DNA of 64,000 bases from Elainellaceae cyanobacterium. GTDB lineage: Bacteria; Cyanobacteriota; Cyanobacteriia; CAZCXK01. The notes below the pieces were generated by a model. It worked only from the letters and a program-made list of their open reading frames with translations, did no database searches and was not told where the DNA came from. Numbering within the stretch: position 1 is the stretch's first letter; every line of letters starts with the position of its first letter. The stretch lies in NCBI GenBank assembly GCA_051117335.1, contig JBNPEB010000035.1, forward strand, positions 67-64,066, written 5' to 3'. Made by a program: the position numbers and the translations under genes. Shown here piece after piece: positions 3,291-30,839 of this stretch.

Positions 3291-3872
3291 TTATGACCTG
3301 AGATGCTCAGCCATGCTGCGTCCGGTGCGTCCAGTGACGATCCATAGAAGCGATCGCCCGATATCACGTGCGGTTTTAAGCCACGATTCATTGGGCTGGT
3401 CGGAAGGGACAGTTATAGACGTATAGGCGATGCCGTGACTGCCGAGCACAAAGAAGGCGATCGCCCGTGCTCTGGGCATGTGAAAGTCGGAGGTGATCAG
3501 ATAAAGATGCTGAATATTATGGTCTTGAAAGGTATGAACTAGGGTTGTGAAATTGGTCACGGTGTCGGTGGCGCGGCGATCGAGATAGAGGCAATCGAGA
3601 GGAATGCCTGCAGCTTGAAAGATAGTTTGAGCCTGGTAGTCATAGATGCCGCTGGAGATCCAGATGGGGAGAGTGGGATGATTTTTGGCAAACCGAGCGG
3701 TGAATTCTTCTCGACTCGCCCCTCCGCCAAGAGTGAAAATGGCTTGGGGTTGGGGAAATTGGGCATGAGCGATCGCCAGTCGGATGGAGATAAAGGGGAT
3801 GAGTAGAAGGGGAATGACGCTGATCAGCAGGAAGAGAATCCGACATTTATGCTTGCTTCGAGATCTCTTCAT
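3291..3872 (-). CDS. YdcF/DUF218 (ElyC/SanA-like) family protein, copy 1
   Basis: N-terminal TM helix, LGGG, DTVTNF, LITSDFHMPRA motifs. Confidence 0.85.
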   Translation of the reverse strand: MKRSRSKHKCRILFLLISVIPLLLIPFISIRLAIAHAQFPQPQAIFTLGGGASREEFTARFAKNHPTLPIWISSGIYDYQAQTIFQAAGIPLDCLYLDRRATDTVTNFTTLVHTFQDHNIQHLYLITSDFHMPRARAIAFFVLGSHGIAYTSITVPSDQPNESWLKTARDIGRSLLWIVTGRTGRSMAEHLRS

Positions 3873-4645
3873 ACGGTGGGACAGGTAGATGATTAGCCTC
3901 TACTAATCTAATCGAAAGTATGAGTTCTGCCAGCATACGTTGCAAGGCATAGTAGCTTCCATGCCAACCGTCGAGGATGCCGCCTTTGAGGATAAGGCAT
4001 TAGATAAGAATGATCAGAGGAGCGAGGGGCGTGTGTTTGCGGAGGCGATCGCTCCATCCCAATTCTGATGTGGGGGGTTTCCTGCAGCTTTTTGACTTCA
4101 AGGATGGCGTAGCGATCTTGTGCCCAGAGCCAGCGGGTCAGGGATTTGCGATCGTCGTGGTGGATGGGATGAGTCAACCGAGCTGATTGTCCTTTCACCG
4201 TTAGAAGCTGAGTATGTCCGTCGTCGATATAAATAGATTGATCTTTTCGGAATAAAGACTGACGGGGTGGCAGGATGGTGCCGCGCAGGGGTTTGCCAAA
4301 GACGCAATATTTGAAAGGTATGAAGTAGCCGTCGATTTCTGATGGTGGGAATAGTATTTTTAACTCGTGAATGAGTTCGTCGGTCAACACATAGTCTGTA
4401 TCGAGTGACAGTATCCATTCGGTTTGAATATGCTCAGTACCGTAGTTCCATTGATTGGCATGGGTATCAAAGGGACGTTGCAAGAGTTGAACCTGAGGAT
4501 AGCTCTTTAGAATATCGAGTGTTTCATCGGTACTGTCGCTATCGATGACGATGATTTGCGTTGCCCAGGTGAGTTTGTGCAGGGTGCGAGCAATGTTGGG
4601 GGCTTCATTGTAGGTGAGAATGAGCGGCGTGATGGCTTCCAGCAT
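3847..4645 (-). pseudogene. glycosyltransferase family 2 (WaaE/LgtF-like), frameshifted
   Basis: Paralog of 9541-10365. +1 shift at the G6 run 4072-4077; the shifted frame (SELGWSDRLRK..LAP..*CLILKGGILDGW) matches the paralog but has an in-frame TAA at 4000-4002. Confidence 0.8.
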
Positions 4646-5394: not shown

Positions 5395-5547
5395 CTACGC
5401 ATTAGAGCTTGACAGGGCTTGAAGCTTGCGATTCAAGATTGATTGGTAAACTTCGATCAGCTGAGATGCAATGTTGTCCCAGGTGTAGTTTTGCAGGATG
5501 AATTGACGGGCGTGTTCAGCACTGCTGTTCCGGCAGGAATCGCCCAT
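5395..5547 (-). pseudogene. 3' fragment of a GT4 glycosyltransferase (F1)
   Basis: MGD[SCRNSSAE]HARQFILQNYTWDNIASQLIEVYQSI aligns to the C-terminus of 11328-12518 (MGDRAHQFILEYYTWDKIASQLI). Confidence 0.75.
5515..5538. repeat. 24-nt HIP1-inserted element, family B, copy 1
   Basis: GTG[TTCAGCACTGCTGTTCCGGCAGGA]ATCGC; matching empty site GTGATCGC at 6412-6419. Confidence 0.85.
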
Positions 5548-5912
5548 TACCGATTCAGCCATGTTCCCAAAAATTCTACCTGGTTCATCATCTCTTCAGC
5601 GGACTTAATGGCTGCCAGTTTCAACACCCCTTTCATCTGATTGCCAACGGGTTCTGTTTGTTTGGCGAGTATGATTCCTGCATGAGTCTTTCCATTGGCT
5701 AACCAGGTGGAGTGTATTCGATAAAAATCTCGGACATTAAATGAGTAAATCACCCGTTGATTCTCCAGCGCCCACTCTAGTTGCTGTTCATCAGATCGTC
5801 CTTGCATATCCACTTCGAGCGTAGACGTAACATCAGCCCCCCGATTTCGCAAAGCTTGCAGGAGACGCTTACTAGTAGCATCCTCGTCTAAATAGAAGCG
5901 AATGACCGTCAT
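5547..5912 (-). CDS. DUF5615 family PIN-like toxin (VapC45-like)
   Basis: RFYLDED, SDEQQLEWA, RVIYSFNVRDF, HAGIIL motifs; ATGA overlap with the upstream DUF433 gene. Confidence 0.85.
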   Translation of the reverse strand: MTVIRFYLDEDATSKRLLQALRNRGADVTSTLEVDMQGRSDEQQLEWALENQRVIYSFNVRDFYRIHSTWLANGKTHAGIILAKQTEPVGNQMKGVLKLAAIKSAEEMMNQVEFLGTWLNR

Positions 5913-6202
5913 TGGACGGCAGAAGATGCTTGAGCTGAAAGCCTCTCATATTCTGCGGCTTCATTAGCCAAGTCCTGCTCAATGGCTTGCTGATTAGCGT
6001 AGTAATAGGCAAGAGCGGCATGAACTTGAGCCAGCGTTAAATGGCTTTTGTCTGACACAATATCGTCTGCGCTGTACCCCTGTTTATACAGAGCAACAAT
6101 TCGTCGTACAGATGTCCCAGTGCCTGCGACAATGGGTCGTCCATCTTGAATGTCGGAGGATGTTGTAATGAGACTGCCAATGTCAACAAAGGTTTGAGCC
6201 AT
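5909..6202 (-). CDS. DUF433 family antitoxin
   Basis: GRPIVAGTGTSV and LTLAQVHAALAYY motifs. Confidence 0.88.
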   Translation of the reverse strand: MAQTFVDIGSLITTSSDIQDGRPIVAGTGTSVRRIVALYKQGYSADDIVSDKSHLTLAQVHAALAYYYANQQAIEQDLANEAAEYERLSAQASSAVQ

Positions 6203-6294
6203 TGATTGATGCCGGAAAAACTCATCTCAAGTTTAGCGTTTGTTTGATGGCGCGATCGCCCTAAAAAGATCCCAGTCAATATCCCAGGTCAAAC

Positions 6295-6477
6295 TCAAGA
6301 TCCGACGGGTTTTGAAATAGTGGGCTGTTGCTTCAAGATGGATTGATAGACTTCGATGAGTTGGGCGGCGATTTTGTCCCAGGTGTAGTTTTCTAGGATG
6401 AATTGACGGGCGTGATCGCCCATTGCTTTTGCTTCTTCTGGATGTTTCTGGCAGTGGATTAATGCGTTGGCGATCGC
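6295..6477 (-). pseudogene. 3' fragment of a GT4 glycosyltransferase (F2)
   Basis: AIANALIHCQKHPEEAKAMGDHARQFILENYTWDKIAAQLIEVY aligns to the end of 11328-12518; homology starts at HIP1 6470-6477. Confidence 0.8.
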
Positions 6478-6496
6478 CCATGTGCTGATTAACTAA

Positions 6497-6922
6497 CTAT
6501 TTCGGAGGATGCCATCCCACTTCAGTCCAAAGTTTACGAGAGATCACCAACTCAGCACGATTCATCCGAAGTGTGATGATAGAGACTCGACCCACTGTTG
6601 TTTTTCCAAGCATAAGTGAACCGTCAGTACTCCATTCAAAATGGTCAACCCAGGCTTGCATCTGAGGATGAAACAGACGAACATCTTGCTGAGATTGGTC
6701 ATCAAATACAGAAATCCTAGCAGCCTTGTATAGGTTGCAATCCCAACAGGCCAAACACAGATTACGCTTCTCTGTTGTTCCTCCCAACAATTCCGGCACG
6801 ATATGGTCAACGGTCAGGCGAATACCTGAAATGTGTTGTTGAGTTTGGCAATACGCACAACGGGATCTAAACTGGGCGACAACTTCGGCACGAACTCCAT
6901 CTGGAATCCTGGATTTACTCAT
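6497..6922 (-). CDS. HNH endonuclease
   Basis: CAYC..DHIVP..GG..NLCLACWDCN motifs. Confidence 0.9.
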   Translation of the reverse strand: MSKSRIPDGVRAEVVAQFRSRCAYCQTQQHISGIRLTVDHIVPELLGGTTEKRNLCLACWDCNLYKAARISVFDDQSQQDVRLFHPQMQAWVDHFEWSTDGSLMLGKTTVGRVSIITLRMNRAELVISRKLWTEVGWHPPK

Positions 6923-7332
6923 GGAACATCAGCAAGTGAGGATATATCGTGACCTCGTTCAGCCAGAAAAGTCGCCGCCTTAGCCCGAACCATCATAATG
7001 TGGTTAAAATGCTTCGATAATATTTGCACTTGTTCAGATTCTTCTGGGGTCAACCCCTGGCGTTGCTGCTTTTCCAACAACTCCTGCATTAAATCATTTT
7101 CGTCTTCAGAAGCTTGGGATGTAGCCGCATTCCACAACTCTTCATCCGTGAGTAGTGTGAGTTGGTTTAAGCGATCGCCCATATCGGTAGCCAACTCTGC
7201 ATCCGTCATTAACGCAGTATTAATCAGACTAACCGTTTCTTCTTCCAACGGTCGATCCGATTTTTGGGCTAAATCAACCAGCCGTTGATAGATTGAATCA
7301 GGTAATCGTAACGTCAATGTTTGCCAAACCAT
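6919..7332 (-). CDS. RHH-like protein, putative partner/antitoxin of the HNH nuclease
   Basis: TLTLRLPDSIYQRL strand-helix N-terminus; ATGA overlap with the HNH gene. Confidence 0.6.
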   Translation of the reverse strand: MVWQTLTLRLPDSIYQRLVDLAQKSDRPLEEETVSLINTALMTDAELATDMGDRLNQLTLLTDEELWNAATSQASEDENDLMQELLEKQQRQGLTPEESEQVQILSKHFNHIMMVRAKAATFLAERGHDISSLADVP

Positions 7333-7399
7333 AGCCCTATATCTGCATCAATACTCAAATGAGTTTTATTATACCTTGACCCATTGCTGGGGTTTACGC

Positions 7400-7530
7400 C
7401 CTCGTTTTGCCTTCTAACGAACTCATCAAACATAGTAAAAAACTGAGTGGCGATCGCATCCCCAGGTGTAGTGTTCTAGAATGAACTGGCAGGCGCGTTC
7501 AGCACTGCTGTTCCGGTAGGAATCGCCCTC
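7400..7530 (-). pseudogene. 3' fragment of a GT4 glycosyltransferase (F3), frameshifted
   Basis: GD[SYRNSSAE]RACQFILEHYTW then +1 shift to DAIATQ; left boundary approximate. Confidence 0.7.
7498..7521. repeat. 24-nt HIP1-inserted element, family B, copy 2
   Basis: GCG[TTCAGCACTGCTGTTCCGGTAGGA]ATCGC; empty site GCGATCGC at 11439-11446 in the intact GT4. Confidence 0.85.
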
Positions 7531-7543
7531 TTCCCTCATCACT

Positions 7544-7830
7544 TCAGGTTCTAAACGATGCTCGCACCTGAGGATGAAGGCTCGCCCCGGTGCGCCCGGT
7601 CACGATCCACAACATCGATCGCCCGATGTCGCGGGAGACATGCCACAGGGTTTCGTTGGGTTGCTTGGAGGGAATGGGGACGGGGGTAGTGATGATGCCG
7701 CGACTGCCGAAGACAAAGGAAGCAATGGCCCCGTGCGCGACGCATATGAAAGTCGGAGGTGATGAGGTAGACGTGGTGGATGTGGCGATCGCCCAAGTCG
7801 CTGACGAGGGAGGTGAAGTTGGTGACGGTG
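7544..7830 (-). pseudogene. YdcF 3' half, copy 2, frameshifted
   Basis: TVTNFTSLVSDLGDRHIHHVYLITSDFHMRRAR, then an extra G and continuation FVFGSRGIITTPVPIPSKQPNETLW; closely similar to 8862-9488. Confidence 0.8.
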
Positions 7831-7835
7831 TTTTA

Positions 7836-8840
7836 TCAATTGTTGGGCGTACACAACTCCACAATTAGGCTATCAGAATCAATGCAGAGTGATTGGTCAA
7901 TAAGTTCTGCTACGGCCTTATTTCCTTCAATACTCAAATGGACACCATCATGAAAATAGCTTTCAACAACAGATGTTGGCAGATCTGACCAAGCGGCTTG
8001 AGTATCAATAATAGGAATGTTCAACTCTTCGAGAATGGATATAAACTCTTGTTTATATTCTGGAGTAGTTGTTTGAGGAATTAAATCTTCCCGATTAGGA
8101 GTAAAAAGAACGAGTATAGGCGTATTGTTATCAACCTGTGAAATAAGTTCTCTCAAATACTCCATATTTTTTGTAAATTTTGCATCGAGAGCAGAAGTAT
8201 TTAGAGTTTGTGGGGATGACTCAGTGGGTAAAAGTCTTGCCATTCTAGGTAACAGATAACGACTGATAACTTCCTGGGTTGCCAGCAATGGGCGAACATC
8301 TGGGTAGCCTGGATGCGTTCCTACGACTTCACTTGTACTCATCGGTTGATATAAGTCATGAGTCCCGATTTGGAGAATGATTGCATCGCTGTTAAATGTC
8401 CCAAATTTTTTGACATAGCCTAATTGATTACCAATGCCCCATGATCCCGCTGAGGCATTGAGTACTTCTGAGGAGTAATTCGAATCAGTAAAGTGCTCTT
8501 CTAAAACTTCTGAAATAGTGTGCTCATGACTGGTTAAGCTACCGCCATTGAGAACGGAATCACCGACCATCATTAATCGCAATGTCCCCTGTTGTTTGGC
8601 TTCAGTAATGGGTTCAGAGCGTTGAGAATATTGGTTATAGAGAATGCGACGGCCAAAACGTTTGAGATCTTGATTGGGCCGAAACCGATAACCTGTCTCT
8701 GAATCGGTTTGGCTTAACACGGGGTATCCAAATCCAAAGCCGAGTCTTAGAGCAATTTCACCAAATGCAGCAAAAAATATCACGGCAACAAGAACCCATT
8801 GCCAATGGTTGCGGGCAGTCTTCAATAATTTCATTATCAA
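7836..8840 (-). CDS. SGNH/GDSL hydrolase family protein
   Basis: GDS block I, NASAGSWG, GTHD and DGVH motifs; N-terminal TM helix. Confidence 0.88.
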   Translation of the reverse strand: MIMKLLKTARNHWQWVLVAVIFFAAFGEIALRLGFGFGYPVLSQTDSETGYRFRPNQDLKRFGRRILYNQYSQRSEPITEAKQQGTLRLMMVGDSVLNGGSLTSHEHTISEVLEEHFTDSNYSSEVLNASAGSWGIGNQLGYVKKFGTFNSDAIILQIGTHDLYQPMSTSEVVGTHPGYPDVRPLLATQEVISRYLLPRMARLLPTESSPQTLNTSALDAKFTKNMEYLRELISQVDNNTPILVLFTPNREDLIPQTTTPEYKQEFISILEELNIPIIDTQAAWSDLPTSVVESYFHDGVHLSIEGNKAVAELIDQSLCIDSDSLIVELCTPNN

Positions 8841-8861: not shown

Positions 8862-9488
8862 TCAGAGTTGAGGATGAAACCTGGCTCCAGTGCGCCCGGT
8901 GATGATCCACAGGATCGAGCGCCCAATGTCGCGTGAGATGTGCCAGAGGGTTTCGTTGGGGTGCTTGGAGGGAATGGCGACGGGGGTAGTGGTGATGCCG
9001 CGACTGCCGAAGACGAAGAAGGCGATCGCCCGTGCGCGTCGCATGTGAAAGTCGGAGGTGATGAGGTAGACGTGGTGAATGCGGCGATACGGGCTGCGCC
9101 CAGGCAAGCCAACGCGAAAGTCGCTGACGAGGGAGGTGAAGTTGGTGACGGTGTCGATGGCGCGACGATCGAGGTGGAGGCGACTTTCGGCAATGGCGGC
9201 GCGTTGAAAGATGGCTTTGGATTCTTGGGTGGGGGCACCGGAAGACACCCAAATGTCTAGATTGGGGTGTTGCTGTGCGAAGAGTGCAGTGAATCTTTCT
9301 CGTTCGGGAATTCCTCCAAGTGTAAGGATGGCTTGAGGAGTGGGGGGGTGGATCTGGGCGAGAATTAGGCGGACGGGAATGAAACTAATGAGAAGGACAA
9401 GGATGGTGATGGTAACGGCAACCCACATTTTGCGATAGATTTTTGGGCGGAGATACATCGAGATTCGGCTGATGAAAATGGTCAGCAT
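8862..9488 (-). CDS. YdcF/DUF218 family protein, copy 3, with an 8-aa insertion
   Basis: DTVTNF and LITSDFHMRRA motifs; VGLPGRSPY segment comes from the 24-nt element. Confidence 0.85.
   Translation of the reverse strand: MLTIFISRISMYLRPKIYRKMWVAVTITILVLLISFIPVRLILAQIHPPTPQAILTLGGIPERERFTALFAQQHPNLDIWVSSGAPTQESKAIFQRAAIAESRLHLDRRAIDTVTNFTSLVSDFRVGLPGRSPYRRIHHVYLITSDFHMRRARAIAFFVFGSRGITTTPVAIPSKHPNETLWHISRDIGRSILWIITGRTGARFHPQL
9089..9112. repeat. 24-nt HIP1-inserted element, family A, copy 1
   Basis: GCGAT[ACGGGCTGCGCCCAGGCAAGCCAA]CGC; empty GCGATCGC at the homologous position 7785-7792. Confidence 0.9.
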
Positions 9489-9540: not shown

Positions 9541-10365
9541 TCAATGTTCCTTTGGGTGAGACTGAGAGGTATTAGAAAAATCAGACAGGTCAGCTTCGAT
9601 GAGCTTGATGGAGAGCAGTAGCTCAGCGAGCATTCGCTGAAATGCGTAATACCATCCGCGCCAGCCATCAAGAATGCCGCCCTTGAGGATGAGGCAGTAG
9701 AGCAAAATCACGAAGGGAGCCAGAATTTTTTGCTGTCGAATGCGATCGCCCCAACTCAATTCTTCTAAAGCTGTTTCTTGAAGCTTCTTCACTTCGAGCA
9801 CCATGTAGCGGTCTTGTGCCCAGAGCCAGCGAGAGAGGGGTTTGCGATCGTCGTGATGAATGGGGTTTGTTAAGGATGCTGATTGTCCTTTCACCACTAA
9901 AAGCTGGGTATGTCCGTCATCGATGTAGTGCGTTGGCTTGCCTGGGCGCAGCCCGTCTTGCCTTTTGCGGAAAAGGGCTTGGCGGGGGGGCAAAATGGTT
10001 CCACGAAGGGGTTTGCCAAAGACGCAGTATTTGAAGGGGATGAAGTAACCATCAACGTCTGGGGAGGGGGAGAGGGCTTTTAGTTCATTAATGAGAGCAT
10101 CGGTGAGGACATAATCGGCATCGAGGGAAAGCACCCACTCGGTTTGAACATGGTCAATGCCTGCGTTCCATTGGTTGGCGTGGGTGTCGAACTTTCGTTG
10201 AACGGTTTCGACTTGTGGATAGGTTTTGAGAATGTCGAGGGTGTTATCTGTGCTGAAGCTATCGATAACAACAATGCGATCAGCCCAGGAAATAGGTTCA
10301 AGAGTACGTCTAATGTTATGTGCTTCGTTATAGGTAAGAATTAAAGGTGTGATATTCTGGAGCAT
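9541..10365 (-). CDS. glycosyltransferase family 2 (WaaE/LgtF-like), with an 8-aa insertion
   Basis: ILTYNEA, VIDSFSTD, LSLDADY motifs; 8 extra residues relative to 3847-4645. Confidence 0.9.
   Translation of the reverse strand: MLQNITPLILTYNEAHNIRRTLEPISWADRIVVIDSFSTDNTLDILKTYPQVETVQRKFDTHANQWNAGIDHVQTEWVLSLDADYVLTDALINELKALSPSPDVDGYFIPFKYCVFGKPLRGTILPPRQALFRKRQDGLRPGKPTHYIDDGHTQLLVVKGQSASLTNPIHHDDRKPLSRWLWAQDRYMVLEVKKLQETALEELSWGDRIRQQKILAPFVILLYCLILKGGILDGWRGWYYAFQRMLAELLLSIKLIEADLSDFSNTSQSHPKEH
9933..9956. repeat. 24-nt element, family A, copy 2, in a degenerate HIP1
   Basis: GCG[TTGGCTTGCCTGGGCGCAGCCCGT]CTTGC inside the GT2 gene. Confidence 0.85.
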
Positions 10366-11327: not shown

Positions 11328-12518
11328 TTAAATATAGAGATGAGGCAACTGTTTATTTTTGATAATAGCGTCGTAAGTTTTTATTAATTGAGATGCTATT
11401 TTGTCCCAGGTGTAGTATTCGAGTATGAACTGATGGGCGCGATCGCCCATTGCTTTAGCTTCGTCTGGAGTGCTGAGGCAATCAATCAGCGCTTTTGCAA
11501 TGGCGTCGGCATCGATATCGACAACGTGGGCAGCTTTCGCAAGCTTAGCTTCTGGGAAGTTGCATCCGGTAGTTATCACACAGGGAAGTCCTGAGGCCAT
11601 TCCTTCTAACATAGACATGCTAAACCCTTCAGAATAGGAGGGCGCGACGTAGAGATTTGCAGCGGCGAGGGCTGCATATTTGAGGTCTCCCGTGAGCATT
11701 CCGGTAAAGGTGACGGCATCCAGACAATTTGCTTTAGAAAAGTATTCTTTAGCTGTTGGGAGAAAGCCAATATTATCTTGTCCGGCAACGATGAGATGAG
11801 CCTTGGGAAACTGTTGATAAACAAGACCGAAGGCTTGAGCCAGGAGGTCAAGCCCTTTTTTGGGGTCAATGCGGCCTAAAAAGAGGATGAGCTGTTTACC
11901 TGATGTGGTTGGAAACCTCTGGAAGAAGAGATCGGGTGAGGGCAGAGTTTGAAAGTCTTCGGCGTGGATACCGTTTGGAATTTTGGTCAATGGGGGCTTC
12001 AGCTTAAGAGGTTGGATGCCTTCAGCTTCTTGAGTGGCAAGGACGTGGATGGTGCTGGCTGTTTGTAGGGTTGGCTGTTCGAGAAGTCGATAATAGAACT
12101 GCTTTTTCCAGGCTTTGTAGGATAAAGCCCAGGGTTCTAACATGCCACGGGGAGTAATGATGTAGGGGATATTTTGCCAGCGACAAAACCAGTGAGCAAG
12201 GGTGATGTTTAGGGAGAAGATAGCGTTGGTGTGAACCAGGTCGTAGTCTTTAATGTGATTCCAGAGCCAGGTCAGAAGGGATGGGCTAAGTTTATAGTCG
12301 CTGAAGGGCAGATAAGGAAAGTATTGGATTCGATACTGAGGGTAAGTAATCCATTGTTTGAGGGGAACGTTGAGAGCAACGGAGGTGTCGGCGTTGGTCG
12401 TTACGATATCGATGGAAATGCCGTGTTGTCCGGTGGCTTTTGCGAGTTCGAGGATGCTTTTGGAGGGGCCACCATAGCTAAGACCAACGGCTGGAAGAAT
12501 AATGAGTATTTTCATCAA
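11328..12518 (-). CDS. glycosyltransferase family 4
   Basis: FLGRIDPKKG and PSYSEGFSMSMLEGMASG motifs. Confidence 0.92.
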   Translation of the reverse strand: MMKILIILPAVGLSYGGPSKSILELAKATGQHGISIDIVTTNADTSVALNVPLKQWITYPQYRIQYFPYLPFSDYKLSPSLLTWLWNHIKDYDLVHTNAIFSLNITLAHWFCRWQNIPYIITPRGMLEPWALSYKAWKKQFYYRLLEQPTLQTASTIHVLATQEAEGIQPLKLKPPLTKIPNGIHAEDFQTLPSPDLFFQRFPTTSGKQLILFLGRIDPKKGLDLLAQAFGLVYQQFPKAHLIVAGQDNIGFLPTAKEYFSKANCLDAVTFTGMLTGDLKYAALAAANLYVAPSYSEGFSMSMLEGMASGLPCVITTGCNFPEAKLAKAAHVVDIDADAIAKALIDCLSTPDEAKAMGDRAHQFILEYYTWDKIASQLIKTYDAIIKNKQLPHLYI

Positions 12519-21499: not shown

Positions 21500-21523
21500 T
21501 TGGCTTGCCTGGGCGCAGCCCGT
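21500..21523. repeat. 24-nt HIP1-inserted element, family A, copy 3
   Basis: GCG[TTGGCTTGCCTGGGCGCAGCCCGT]ATCGC at the right edge of R1. Confidence 0.9.
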
Positions 21524-22300: not shown

Positions 22301-22560
22301 CTGAGGATGCCGCCATTCCGTCTTCATGAACACGACGAAAAAAAAGAGTGAGCACTGCTCACTCCTTGATAAAGAGGTTTGATGATGACCCTAACCCTGC
22401 CCCATCAGCGCATGACCCAAACTCTAGATTAAGAGCCGTAGAGTTCCAAACAGAAAGCGTACACCACTCAACCTAGACAATAAACCTGTAGACAATCCTA
22501 ACCCCATCGAAACCATGAAGATTTAGGGACTTTTACTCGCCTGGGCATCACCCGTATCGC
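22301..22560. repeat. non-coding repeat R, copy 2, ending in a degenerate family A element
   Basis: Alignment to R1; GCCTGGGC..CCCGTATCGC at 22539-22560; terminator-like hairpin 22338-22364. Confidence 0.88.
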
Positions 22561-22742: not shown

Positions 22743-22766
22743 TTGGCTTGCCTGGGCGCAGCCCGT
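22743..22766. repeat. 24-nt HIP1-inserted element, family A, copy 5
   Basis: GCG[TTGGCTTGCCTGGGCGCAGCCCGT]ATCGC. Confidence 0.9.
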
Positions 22767-29236: not shown

Positions 29237-30004
29237 CTAGATAGAATCAGGCCGAGCGTCAGGGTCAACTCCCAAAGCTCTCAACTGGTCTGCTAGCCGT
29301 TCTGCCCGTTGGCGTTCCTGCTCTGCCCGTTGGCGTTCCTGCTCTACTCGCTCTTCAGCGTTCAAGATCCATTGATTCTCGGCATCATACCATCGCAACC
29401 ACAGCCGATTAATTCCTTGATAGGTGCCTTGCCAAAGTCCTACCCCTAAATTTAGAGTTGGCATCCAAATCCGAGGTTCAGAAAGGGATTGTTCGCTGTA
29501 GCGATCGGCTTGTAGCGTAAAGACTCGCAGCCTATCGGTATAACGGTCAAACACAATATAGTAAGGAACTCGGAGAATCTGTTCGTATACTCGCCACTTG
29601 GTTGGCGGTTGCTCAGTCGTTCGCAACGTTTGACCTAAATCGTCTTTTTCAGTGCCGGGAGATAAGAGTTCAACCACTACAAAGGGATCAGCGCCCTCTT
29701 GCCAGGTGACGTAGCTGAGTCGCAAATCTCGTTCTTCATAAAAGCGATCGATTCCCACGACAGCGAACCAGTCGGGTCGCTTATACCAATGGGGATGACG
29801 CACATCGTAGTAGAGATTGAGATCAGAGGCTACAAAGATTTGATCTGCAGAATAAGCAGGAGGACAAAACGTCTCCCGCAACAGTTGGGGTTGATAGATA
29901 TGAAATTCGTCCGGCACGCCCGGTTCGTTTGGATCTTCACTAGGAAGATCATACATCGTGGGCAGAGTTTCTTTTGCAGGTCGAGGCGGATCAGATTGGT
30001 ACAT
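29237..30004 (-). CDS. Uma2 family endonuclease
   Basis: Close paralog of 27799-28650. Confidence 0.9.
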   Translation of the reverse strand: MYQSDPPRPAKETLPTMYDLPSEDPNEPGVPDEFHIYQPQLLRETFCPPAYSADQIFVASDLNLYYDVRHPHWYKRPDWFAVVGIDRFYEERDLRLSYVTWQEGADPFVVVELLSPGTEKDDLGQTLRTTEQPPTKWRVYEQILRVPYYIVFDRYTDRLRVFTLQADRYSEQSLSEPRIWMPTLNLGVGLWQGTYQGINRLWLRWYDAENQWILNAEERVEQERQRAEQERQRAERLADQLRALGVDPDARPDSI

Positions 30005-30300
30005 GAGGAGAACCTTTGCCGTTACCTATTGCCGTTATTTGACGACATATCCTCGGGATAACCATTGCGATAATATGCGTCCACACGCCTTGTACCGACA
30101 CGGCTTGACATCTGTTAAAAGTTTAATCTACGTTGTCACCTTGTCACTCTATGTCGCAACTACACTGTTGTAATTACGCTGCGACGCGTTATCACTCTAT
30201 GGTTGTAATTCTTACAACATGTTGTAATCACACTACAATACATTGCTCACCAGCCTCAATGAATCAGTGAGCTGGTTTAGCGATCGCATAACCCAGGCCG

Positions 30301-30726
30301 TTAGCTCATAAATTTGAAGTCATTGAGATGACCATATTGATTGCGTCGGGCTTGGCGACGCGTAAACTCGCTAACCGACGTATTTCCATCGGGATGCATC
30401 ACCCGCACCTGTTGCCATAGCTCATGAGGCGCAATGTCTATCTCATAGGTGCGATCGCCCGTTTTGGTTACATGATACCAACGGGTTTCTTGGCACTGAT
30501 CGCACCAAAATGCTTCGAGCCATTCATGCTCCAAGGGAACAGTGGTTTTGCTAGCGACCAATAATCTGGCTGTGCGGCGTCCGACTCCTCGCTGCTGAAG
30601 TTGTGTCGGGCAATCGGCAAATAGCGGATATTTTTGACTGACGCTATCGAGATAGCACGCATGAATCAGGCAATAGATAGCCCGTCGTTTCGAGCGCTTC
30701 CGATTTCGGGCACACCTTCTCTGCAA
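30301..30726 (-). CDS. hypothetical protein, possibly metal-binding
   Basis: Basic N-terminus, CLIH and WCDQC motifs. Confidence 0.7.
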   Translation of the reverse strand: MQRRCARNRKRSKRRAIYCLIHACYLDSVSQKYPLFADCPTQLQQRGVGRRTARLLVASKTTVPLEHEWLEAFWCDQCQETRWYHVTKTGDRTYEIDIAPHELWQQVRVMHPDGNTSVSEFTRRQARRNQYGHLNDFKFMS

Positions 30727-30839
30727 ATCTGCCTCCTTGATTACGACACGGAACTAGAAGGCTAGGGTGGAGAGACTGAGATCGTAAAGACCGTCGAAGC
30801 CCGCTCCTTAACGCTGGGTTGAATTTAATGGTTTAGGTT

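Follow-up and report, generated by a model that had tools for sequence, protein, structure and literature searches.

The question raised by this locus is what a 24-nt sequence that interrupts the palindrome HIP1 (GCGATCGC) at two neighbouring places is, and whether it arrived there once or twice. The window, which is the whole 64,000-nt stretch analysed (positions 67 to 64,066 of contig JBNPEB010000035.1, assembly GCA_051117335.1, Elainellaceae cyanobacterium), contains 76 HIP1 sites against 1.5 expected. The 5.9-Mb assembly contains 8,615 of them (1.46 per kb, at 49% G+C), a density from which the host is recognized as a cyanobacterium. The 24-nt element, referred to here as B, reads TTCAGCACTGCTGTTCCGG(C/T)AGGA and occurs at 5515-5538 and 7498-7521, the two copies differing only at the C/T position (5534/7517). 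In gene orientation, that of the minus strand, its sequence is TCCT(G/A)CCGGAACAGCAGTGCTGAA. We regard B as a good candidate for a very low-copy insert of the type of SDR5, one of the small dispersed repeats (SDRs), placed in trans and acquired twice rather than simply duplicated.

Both copies adjoin 3' remnants of GT4 glycosyltransferase genes, and two further homologous GT4 sites lie in the window. The features concerned are as follows; L038 and L040 denote GT4 genes of two other cyanobacteria, and L055-L058 denote contigs of other cyanobacteria.

5515-5538, minus strand: B copy 1, minus-strand reading TCCTGCCGGAACAGCAGTGCTGAA
7498-7521, minus strand: B copy 2, minus-strand reading TCCTACCGGAACAGCAGTGCTGAA, differing from copy 1 at a single position, which falls in loop 1 of the predicted fold
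5512-5543, no strand: split imperfect HIP1 around copy 1, GTG-B-ATCGC
7495-7526, no strand: split HIP1 around copy 2, GCG-B-ATCGC
5395-5514 (about), minus strand: tail1, GT4 3' remnant, HARQFILQNYTWDN and on to the stop, L038-like allele class
6295-6481, minus strand: tail2, GT4 3' remnant from the 'AIA' HIP1 (6470-6477) to the stop, B site empty (GTGATCGC, 6412-6419)
7441-7497, minus strand: tail3, GT4 remnant (57 nt) in the L056-like allele class, containing a HIP1 of its own at 7450-7457
11328-12518, minus strand: intact GT4 glycosyltransferase gene, in which the uninterrupted HIP1 at 11439-11446 encodes 'GDRA' of MGDRAH

B is a derived insertion at one bond of HIP1

The plus-strand flanks of B are GTG and ATCGC for copy 1 and GCG and ATCGC for copy 2, and the homologous sequences carry uninterrupted octamers at the same place, GTGATCGC in tail2 and GCGATCGC in the full-length gene. 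The GTG variant is common to 5512 and 6412, and neither B site has a target duplication. In these respects the initial annotation, which had described two 24-mers with a single C/T difference, inserted precisely at GCG^ATCGC without target duplication and matched by empty octamers sharing the GTG flank, was borne out. The same site is also empty in two other cyanobacteria, where the GT4 genes L038 and L040 have an intact ATGGGCGATCGCGCC at the position of B.

The usual MGDRAR codons of GT4 generate the HIP1 in which B lies. The MG-xx-AR...YTW spacing is kept in about 100 of the 120 GT4 homologues scored by pattern, and the GT4 tails outside the pattern count, read by eye, have the same spacing; eight extra residues are present in none of them. 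Because GT4 homologues lack the eight codons, and because HIP1 is intact in L038 and L040, B is to be read from the aligned sequences as a derived 24-nt (8-codon) insertion at GCGAT^CGC, in gene orientation, and not as the product of a deletion elsewhere.

Of the four homologous GT4 sites, only the gene at 11328-12518 is intact, and the three others are 5'-truncated 3' remnants. A 1-nt insertion in tail3 at 7459-7463 (TGGGG instead of TGGG) shifts the GT4 frame, which confirms that this tail is a dead remnant. It was correctly noted earlier that 24 nt keeps the reading frame; this carries little weight, as both copies are in 5'-truncated gene remnants. Both copies of B lie in dead gene remnants and probably have no function of their own.

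Copy number and predicted fold of B

No further match to B was detected in the window at up to 3 mismatches, and 0 of 100 shuffles yielded any match. In the 5.9-Mb genome, B has two copies at up to 4 mismatches, at paralogous sites 2 kb apart, and no copy was found at up to 3 mismatches in 60 relatives, including two genomes of the same genus. A search of about 185,000 GTDB species representatives for the stems of B with free loops gave 29 matches, none cyanobacterial and none in a HIP1 context, a number that agrees with chance. The JGI metagenome contigs scanned for B gave five chance matches, none in a HIP1 context.

The name "family" given to B in the initial annotation did not hold, since only these two copies were found wherever we searched. 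Two copies arising from one insertion that was later duplicated had been named there as the outcome that would count against a family; the first part of this, just two copies, is what we found. The genome-wide count of GCG-N(L)-ATCGC spacings that had been proposed as a check did not rise at 24 above what the 3-nt coding periodicity accounts for, although such a count is blind to small families, being dominated by the chance co-occurrence of HIP1 halves. B is not established as a family or as an independently mobile element.

The minimum-energy fold predicted for the minus strand of B is (T)TCC-TGCC-GGA(A) followed by CAGC-AGT-GCTG, that is, two 4-bp mini-hairpins, with the sole difference between the copies in loop 1. 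These are the hairpins that had been proposed previously, and the position of the difference in a loop was also correct, but the energy of this fold does not stand out from shuffles (see below). Among 295 24-nt spacings between HIP1 halves that were examined, B was the sole strict twin hairpin. B has no Rfam match at E ≤ 1 and does not resemble a terminator.

Both copies lie in hybrid joints of a rearranged cassette stack

The GT4 tails alternate with two gene cassettes, and the flanks of B are best understood together with them.

5547-6202, minus strand: cassette 1, a toxin-antitoxin-like pair of a DUF433 gene (5909-6202) and a DUF5615 PIN-like gene (5547-5912)
6288-6271: terminator-like hairpin beside tail2
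6497-7332, minus strand: cassette 2, a 137-aa gene (6919-7332) and an HNH endonuclease gene (6497-6922)
5539-5549: left half of HIP1 at copy 1, TAATGGGCGAT in gene orientation, the native 3' flank of the DUF5615 gene according to L056
7529-7568: sequence beyond GGGCGAT at copy 2, which is not the GT4 sequence upstream of the site and resembles the GT4 C-terminal 'DVYGEIVGD' HIP1 context

Exact-protein look-ups with the cassette genes and the open reading frame of tail1 found no other assembly, and no orthologous locus was found in two genomes of the same genus and one of the same family, whose DNA is too diverged. A close homologue of the DUF5615 gene (P0122, 85% identity) led to contigs L055-L058. 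In these, a GT4 gene is followed by a DUF433/DUF5615 pair, a GT4-tail remnant starting from the 'AIA' HIP1, a second DUF433/DUF5615 pair, an 87-aa 'MGDRLNQL' gene and a methyltransferase gene. Every joint of this stack has an intact HIP1, and none has the 24-mer.

Cassette 1 has 83% DNA identity to L056 1153-1874. The matching segment runs from 6261 to 5539, and the homology ends exactly at GCGAT^ (5539). Past this break, L056 runs on with CGCTTAAAT, while in the window B follows, and after it tail1; the continuation displaced from here lies at 7186 to 6879 and 6581 to 6469. As the L056 homology ends at GCGAT^, the ATGGGCGAT on the left side of B in tail1 is not GT4 sequence but the HIP1 half that belongs to the cassette. 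In tail3, the sequence to the left of B is a remnant resembling the GT4 C-terminal '...VGD(RP)' HIP1. As judged from these alignments, both copies of B are located in hybrid HIP1 joints with unrelated left partners.

Several observations concern the stack itself. The window from 5395 to 7870 is a rearranged version of the stack seen in L055-L058 (for example, L056:1-2340), and L056 1153-2290, contiguous there, is split in the window into 6261-5539, 7186-6879 and 6581-6469, with breaks at HIP1 sites. The 137-aa gene at 6919-7332 is homologous to the 87-aa 'MGDRLNQL' gene of L056, from which it differs by an N-terminal extension of about 50 codons. The start codon of the 87-aa homologue is within a HIP1 (ATGGGCGATCGC) that overlaps the DUF5615 stop. 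The idea that one GT4 site is reiterated five times was weakened by L056, where several of these are different native HIP1 sites; the native sites (AIA, GDRP and the start of the MGDRLNQL gene) merely have GGGCGATCGC in common.

One acquisition of B or two

The tails were compared in a gapped alignment over about 55 nt. Tail1, tail2 and L038 form one class (6-8 differences per 56 nt) and tail3 and L056 form another (8-9 per 55), with 13-17 differences per 55 between the classes. The closest relatives without B are tail2 and L038 for tail1 (8/56) and L056 for tail3 (8/55). B itself shows 1 difference in 24 nt, compared with 15 in 55 between tail1 and tail3 (one-sided Fisher p = 0.015), and when GGGCGAT is included with B, 1 in 31 (p = 0.004). 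B therefore appears to be younger than its flanks (p = 0.004-0.015). The derived CAC common to tail1 and the empty tail2, together with the different allele classes and the nearer relatives without B, disfavors a plain duplication of B with its tail. The left flanks of the two copies are also unrelated, one being the cassette's own HIP1 and the other the GT4 C-terminal HIP1. Two separate acquisitions are, from this comparison, somewhat more likely than plain duplication, though not proven.

The opposing explanation starts from one insertion into one GT4 tail, after which the GGGCGAT-B-tail unit was copied by the HIP1-associated rearrangements that built the stack, and one tail was later overwritten by conversion from a neighbour without B, with the tract stopping at the heterologous B. 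The locus has demonstrably been shaped by rearrangements breaking at HIP1, there are only two copies, 2 kb apart at paralogous sites, and tail1 and tail2 show a mosaic pattern (2 of 38 nt different beside the site, about 23% farther on). However, the B-bearing tails belong to different allele classes and each is nearer to a tail without B of another genome, the unrelated left flanks would require two separate joints formed exactly at the left edge of B, the conversion tract would need to stop within 1-2 nt of B, and B is significantly more alike than the flanks. We consider this explanation possible but doubtful.

The reading preferred here, two acquisitions of an SDR5-type insert, also has points that weigh against it. 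Two random HIP1 insertions at such paralogous sites would have a probability of about 5e-4, so any second acquisition would have to be local or guided by homology or microhomology. If B dates only from the split of tail1 and tail2, it would show at most one difference with a probability of 0.14, which makes the single difference not unlikely under one insertion. A duplication after which a tail2-like donor converted tail1 may also account for the two copies, and all flank statistics rest on 38-56 nt. The fold energy of B is no better than that of shuffled sequence (p 0.08-0.16), and two copies with their sole difference in a loop give no covariation to read. B has only two copies, both in paralogous sites, neither a source copy nor relatives of B were found anywhere searched, and no enzyme was identified for the insertion.

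Other inserts in the HIP1 sites of this genome

Two other groups of short inserts in HIP1 were found in the same genome. Family A (ACGGGCTGCGCCCAGGCAAGCCAA and variants) is 24 nt long; its copies, about 17-20, are spread over many contigs, and GCGAT...CGC flanks nearly all of them. In the window it provides three clean 24-nt filled/empty paralogue pairs, among them the copy at 9089-9112, with the intact HIP1 at 7785-7792 and the empty site at 3515-3538 as paralogues, and the copy at 9933-9956, with an empty paralogous site at 4231-4244. In stem 1, the pair 4:12 is UA in eight sequences, CG in four, GC in two and UG in two, and is thus paired in 16 of 16; the observed covariation score was reached by 0 of 500 shuffles. 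From this alignment, stem 1 of Family A is read as maintained by compensatory change. Family C (for example, AGTCCTTTGGGACTGGTCTTTGACCAT) consists of multi-copy 26-27-nt twin hairpins in split HIP1, with visible compensatory changes in both stems. Many copies of Families A and C are within long intact open reading frames, with homology on both sides.

B is like Family A in its length of 24 nt, the bond GCGAT^CGC, the terminal AA and the filled/empty paralogue pairs, and some Family A copies, like those of B, adjoin homology breakpoints of toxin-antitoxin cassette arrays. It differs in having an unrelated sequence and two copies, compared with about 17-20 copies with compensatory stem changes, and in having two 4-bp stems where the second hairpin of Family A is weak. 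With Family C, B shares two adjacent short hairpins filling a split HIP1, whereas Family C is 26-27 nt long, ends in AT, is multi-copy and is unrelated in sequence.

This similarity bears on the explanation that B is not an element but a one-off indel or break-repair filler that landed in HIP1 by accident and was copied afterwards. No relatives of B turned up anywhere searched and its fold is not significant, as would be expected of such filler. On the other hand, its exact length and exact bond are those of Family A in the same genome, and no local template was found; as a candidate for templated filler B was rejected, because its 11-14-mers occur at chance level in unrelated coding contexts. 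Neither half of B was found as the end of a longer element. A filler origin is therefore considered highly improbable.

Family A also bears on the explanation that B belongs to the joining mechanism itself, with the 24-mers put in, or used as folded attC-like sites, when HIP1 sites are cut and joined; a single activity would then produce both SDR-type insertion and HIP1-to-HIP1 cassette shuffling. Both copies of B are in hybrid HIP1 joints, where the homology stops precisely at GCGAT^; Family A at 21500 and 22532 has the same geometry at the ends of R repeats in a second toxin-antitoxin array; the contig encodes neither a tyrosine nor a serine recombinase (no match to PF00589 or PF00239 on contig C64); and the bond is the one cut by enzymes of the PvuI and AsiSI type (REBASE). 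Yet the homologous stack of L055-L058 has an intact HIP1 and no 24-mer at each joint, many copies of Families A and C lie inside long intact open reading frames with homology on both sides, and the support comes from just two independent arrays in one window. The inserts are not generally tied to junctions, and such a role of B in joining is very unlikely in our judgement. The broader proposal, in which one activity cutting at GCGAT^CGC would give rise both to SDR-type 24-mers and to HIP1-to-HIP1 rearrangement, we also rate as unlikely. Under that proposal, the joining of cut HIP1 sites would stack toxin-antitoxin cassettes and gene tails, a folded 24-mer could be captured or copied into a joint, and such joints would be what B and the Family A copies at the R repeats mark. 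Were it true, cassettes would be shuffled without an integrase, with HIP1 serving as their landing pad throughout the genome.

The individual copies of these families showed further features. The Family A copy at 9933-9956 is inside a GT2 gene (9541-10365), where GGCAAG replaces GCGAT on one side, so the HIP1 is non-canonical; the paralogous GT2 gene (3908-4645) is empty at 4231-4244. Four copies identical in 24 of 24 nt are located within 14 kb (9089-9112, 9933-9956, 21500-21523 and 22743-22766), compared with 3-5 nt of difference in the copies on other contigs. The cluster suggests local spread or a recently imported region, and local spread of such elements is plausible. The perfect copy at 21500-21523 and a degenerate one at 22532-22555 (7 mismatches) are at the same end of two R repeats, whose homology stops about 9 nt beyond them; these two copies differ by 29% and the repeats by 13%, the reverse of the pattern of B. 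Family C copies were located at C77:3256-3282, C74:40978-41004, C24:1351-1377, C20:6716-6741, C29:1098-1124 and C33:68678-68704 (contigs of G000). Because Family C ends in AT (GCGAT...AT followed by CGC), its bond can be placed in more than one way, and a 2-nt AT duplication would be compatible with it.

Comparison with SDR5 and other known systems

Small dispersed repeats of Nostoc punctiforme and its relatives, SDR5 among them, were reportedly described by Elhai et al. in 2008 (Genome Res 18:1484). In the relevant passages of later papers, SDR5 is given as inserted between nucleotides 3 and 4 of HIP1 (PMC4390886), as 21 nt long (PMC13756078) and as confined to Nostocaceae (PMC13756078, PMC5861425). 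As far as these passages describe SDR5, B resembles it in its insertion at GCG^ATCGC, in being tiny (within the 21-27-nt range of SDRs) and non-coding, in the lack of a target duplication, and in the ability to add in-frame codons. It differs in its length of 24 nt instead of 21 nt and in its two copies at paralogous sites, where SDR5 is a dispersed multi-copy repeat. Furthermore, B is unrelated to anything in the sequenced representatives of Nostocaceae, and the host probably lies outside that family, as its GTDB family holds only three other species, with the remaining relatives in the same class, which fits poorly with the large Nostocaceae.

Identity with a published SDR was assessed indirectly: these are multi-copy in Nostoc, and the stems of B occur in no cyanobacterial GTDB representative. 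B seems, as far as this indirect comparison reaches, to be none of the described Nostoc SDRs. The data support B as a new, minimal-copy member of the SDR5-type mini-insertions that split HIP1, not as a proven mobile family.

B was also compared with REP/REPIN sequences (RAYT, Y1/HUH) and the ends of IS200/IS605, with which it shares short hairpins, a fixed short neighbour sequence and the lack of a target duplication. Unlike them, it has no longer element with B-like ends and flanks no cognate Y1/HUH gene. None of the seven Y1/HUH genes (PF01797) in the genome is flanked by Family A or B, and one of them is situated 1.2 kb away from a Family A copy, though with REPs of its own. The RAYT-like Y1 gene on C20 (210 aa; L044:1356-2228, G000 C20, about 29885-30757) has GTAG-type REPs of its own; on both sides of it are 30-nt inverted REP-type palindromes (GTAGGTTGGGTTGACGCAGGAAACCCAACA), each immediately adjoining a HIP1. 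B is unlike the attC sites of integrons, having no integrase nearby and occupying only two of the five reiterated (AT)GGGCGAT^C sites of its own stack and none in the L056 stack.

Possible mechanism and significance

B was probably made by the same process as Families A and C, in which a trans-acting activity would set a tiny non-coding hairpin-forming DNA exactly at GCGAT^CGC of HIP1 without target duplication. The machinery would presumably recognize the hairpins, as single-stranded DNA or RNA, together with the HIP1 halves. AsiSI/SgfI cuts GCGAT^CGC at this bond, as PvuI does in the core CGAT^CG (REBASE), which would make a HIP1-specific cut a reasonable first step for insertion as well as for HIP1-to-HIP1 joints. 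The second acquisition of B could have been a local copy-paste event or HIP1-microhomology-templated copying between diverged GT4 tails 2 kb apart.

B alone adds little, being one more sequence, at the minimum copy number, among the HIP1-splitting micro-insertions, which are said to have been first described in Nostoc in 2008. More informative is the use of one HIP1 bond by the unrelated sequences A, B and C in one genome that probably lies outside Nostoc; as the inserts are unrelated and the bond is the same, the specificity would lie in the target and the shape rather than in the sequence of the insert. The insert-free stack in other cyanobacteria and the B-bearing joints provide a natural before/after comparison for the cutting and rejoining of HIP1, and the main use of B is as a marker in a locus for studying HIP1-mediated joining. 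To our knowledge, the purpose of HIP1 and the mover of SDRs have been debated for over 15 years. A genome that holds several active-looking families would be a reasonable place to seek the enzyme that moves SDRs.

Minor observations from the HIP1 searches

A search of 400 genomes of the class for relatives sharing one hairpin with B gave five hairpin-2 matches that looked like twin hairpins, and these were rejected as false positives. Three of them are one orthologous coding segment (..AISEATAKLNA..), and the rest fit chance. This segment, found in L050, L051 and L052 (G302, G068 and G101), has the look of a 24-nt twin hairpin set between GCGAT and CGC and illustrates that pattern scans for HIP1-split elements can return orthologous false positives. 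Finally, an 18-nt hairpin (TAGGCAAAGCCTACGCTG) is present between GCGAT and CGC in four places (C5:7396, C16:24044, C16:26041 and C81:76094 in G000) and may be a further small HIP1-associated repeat.

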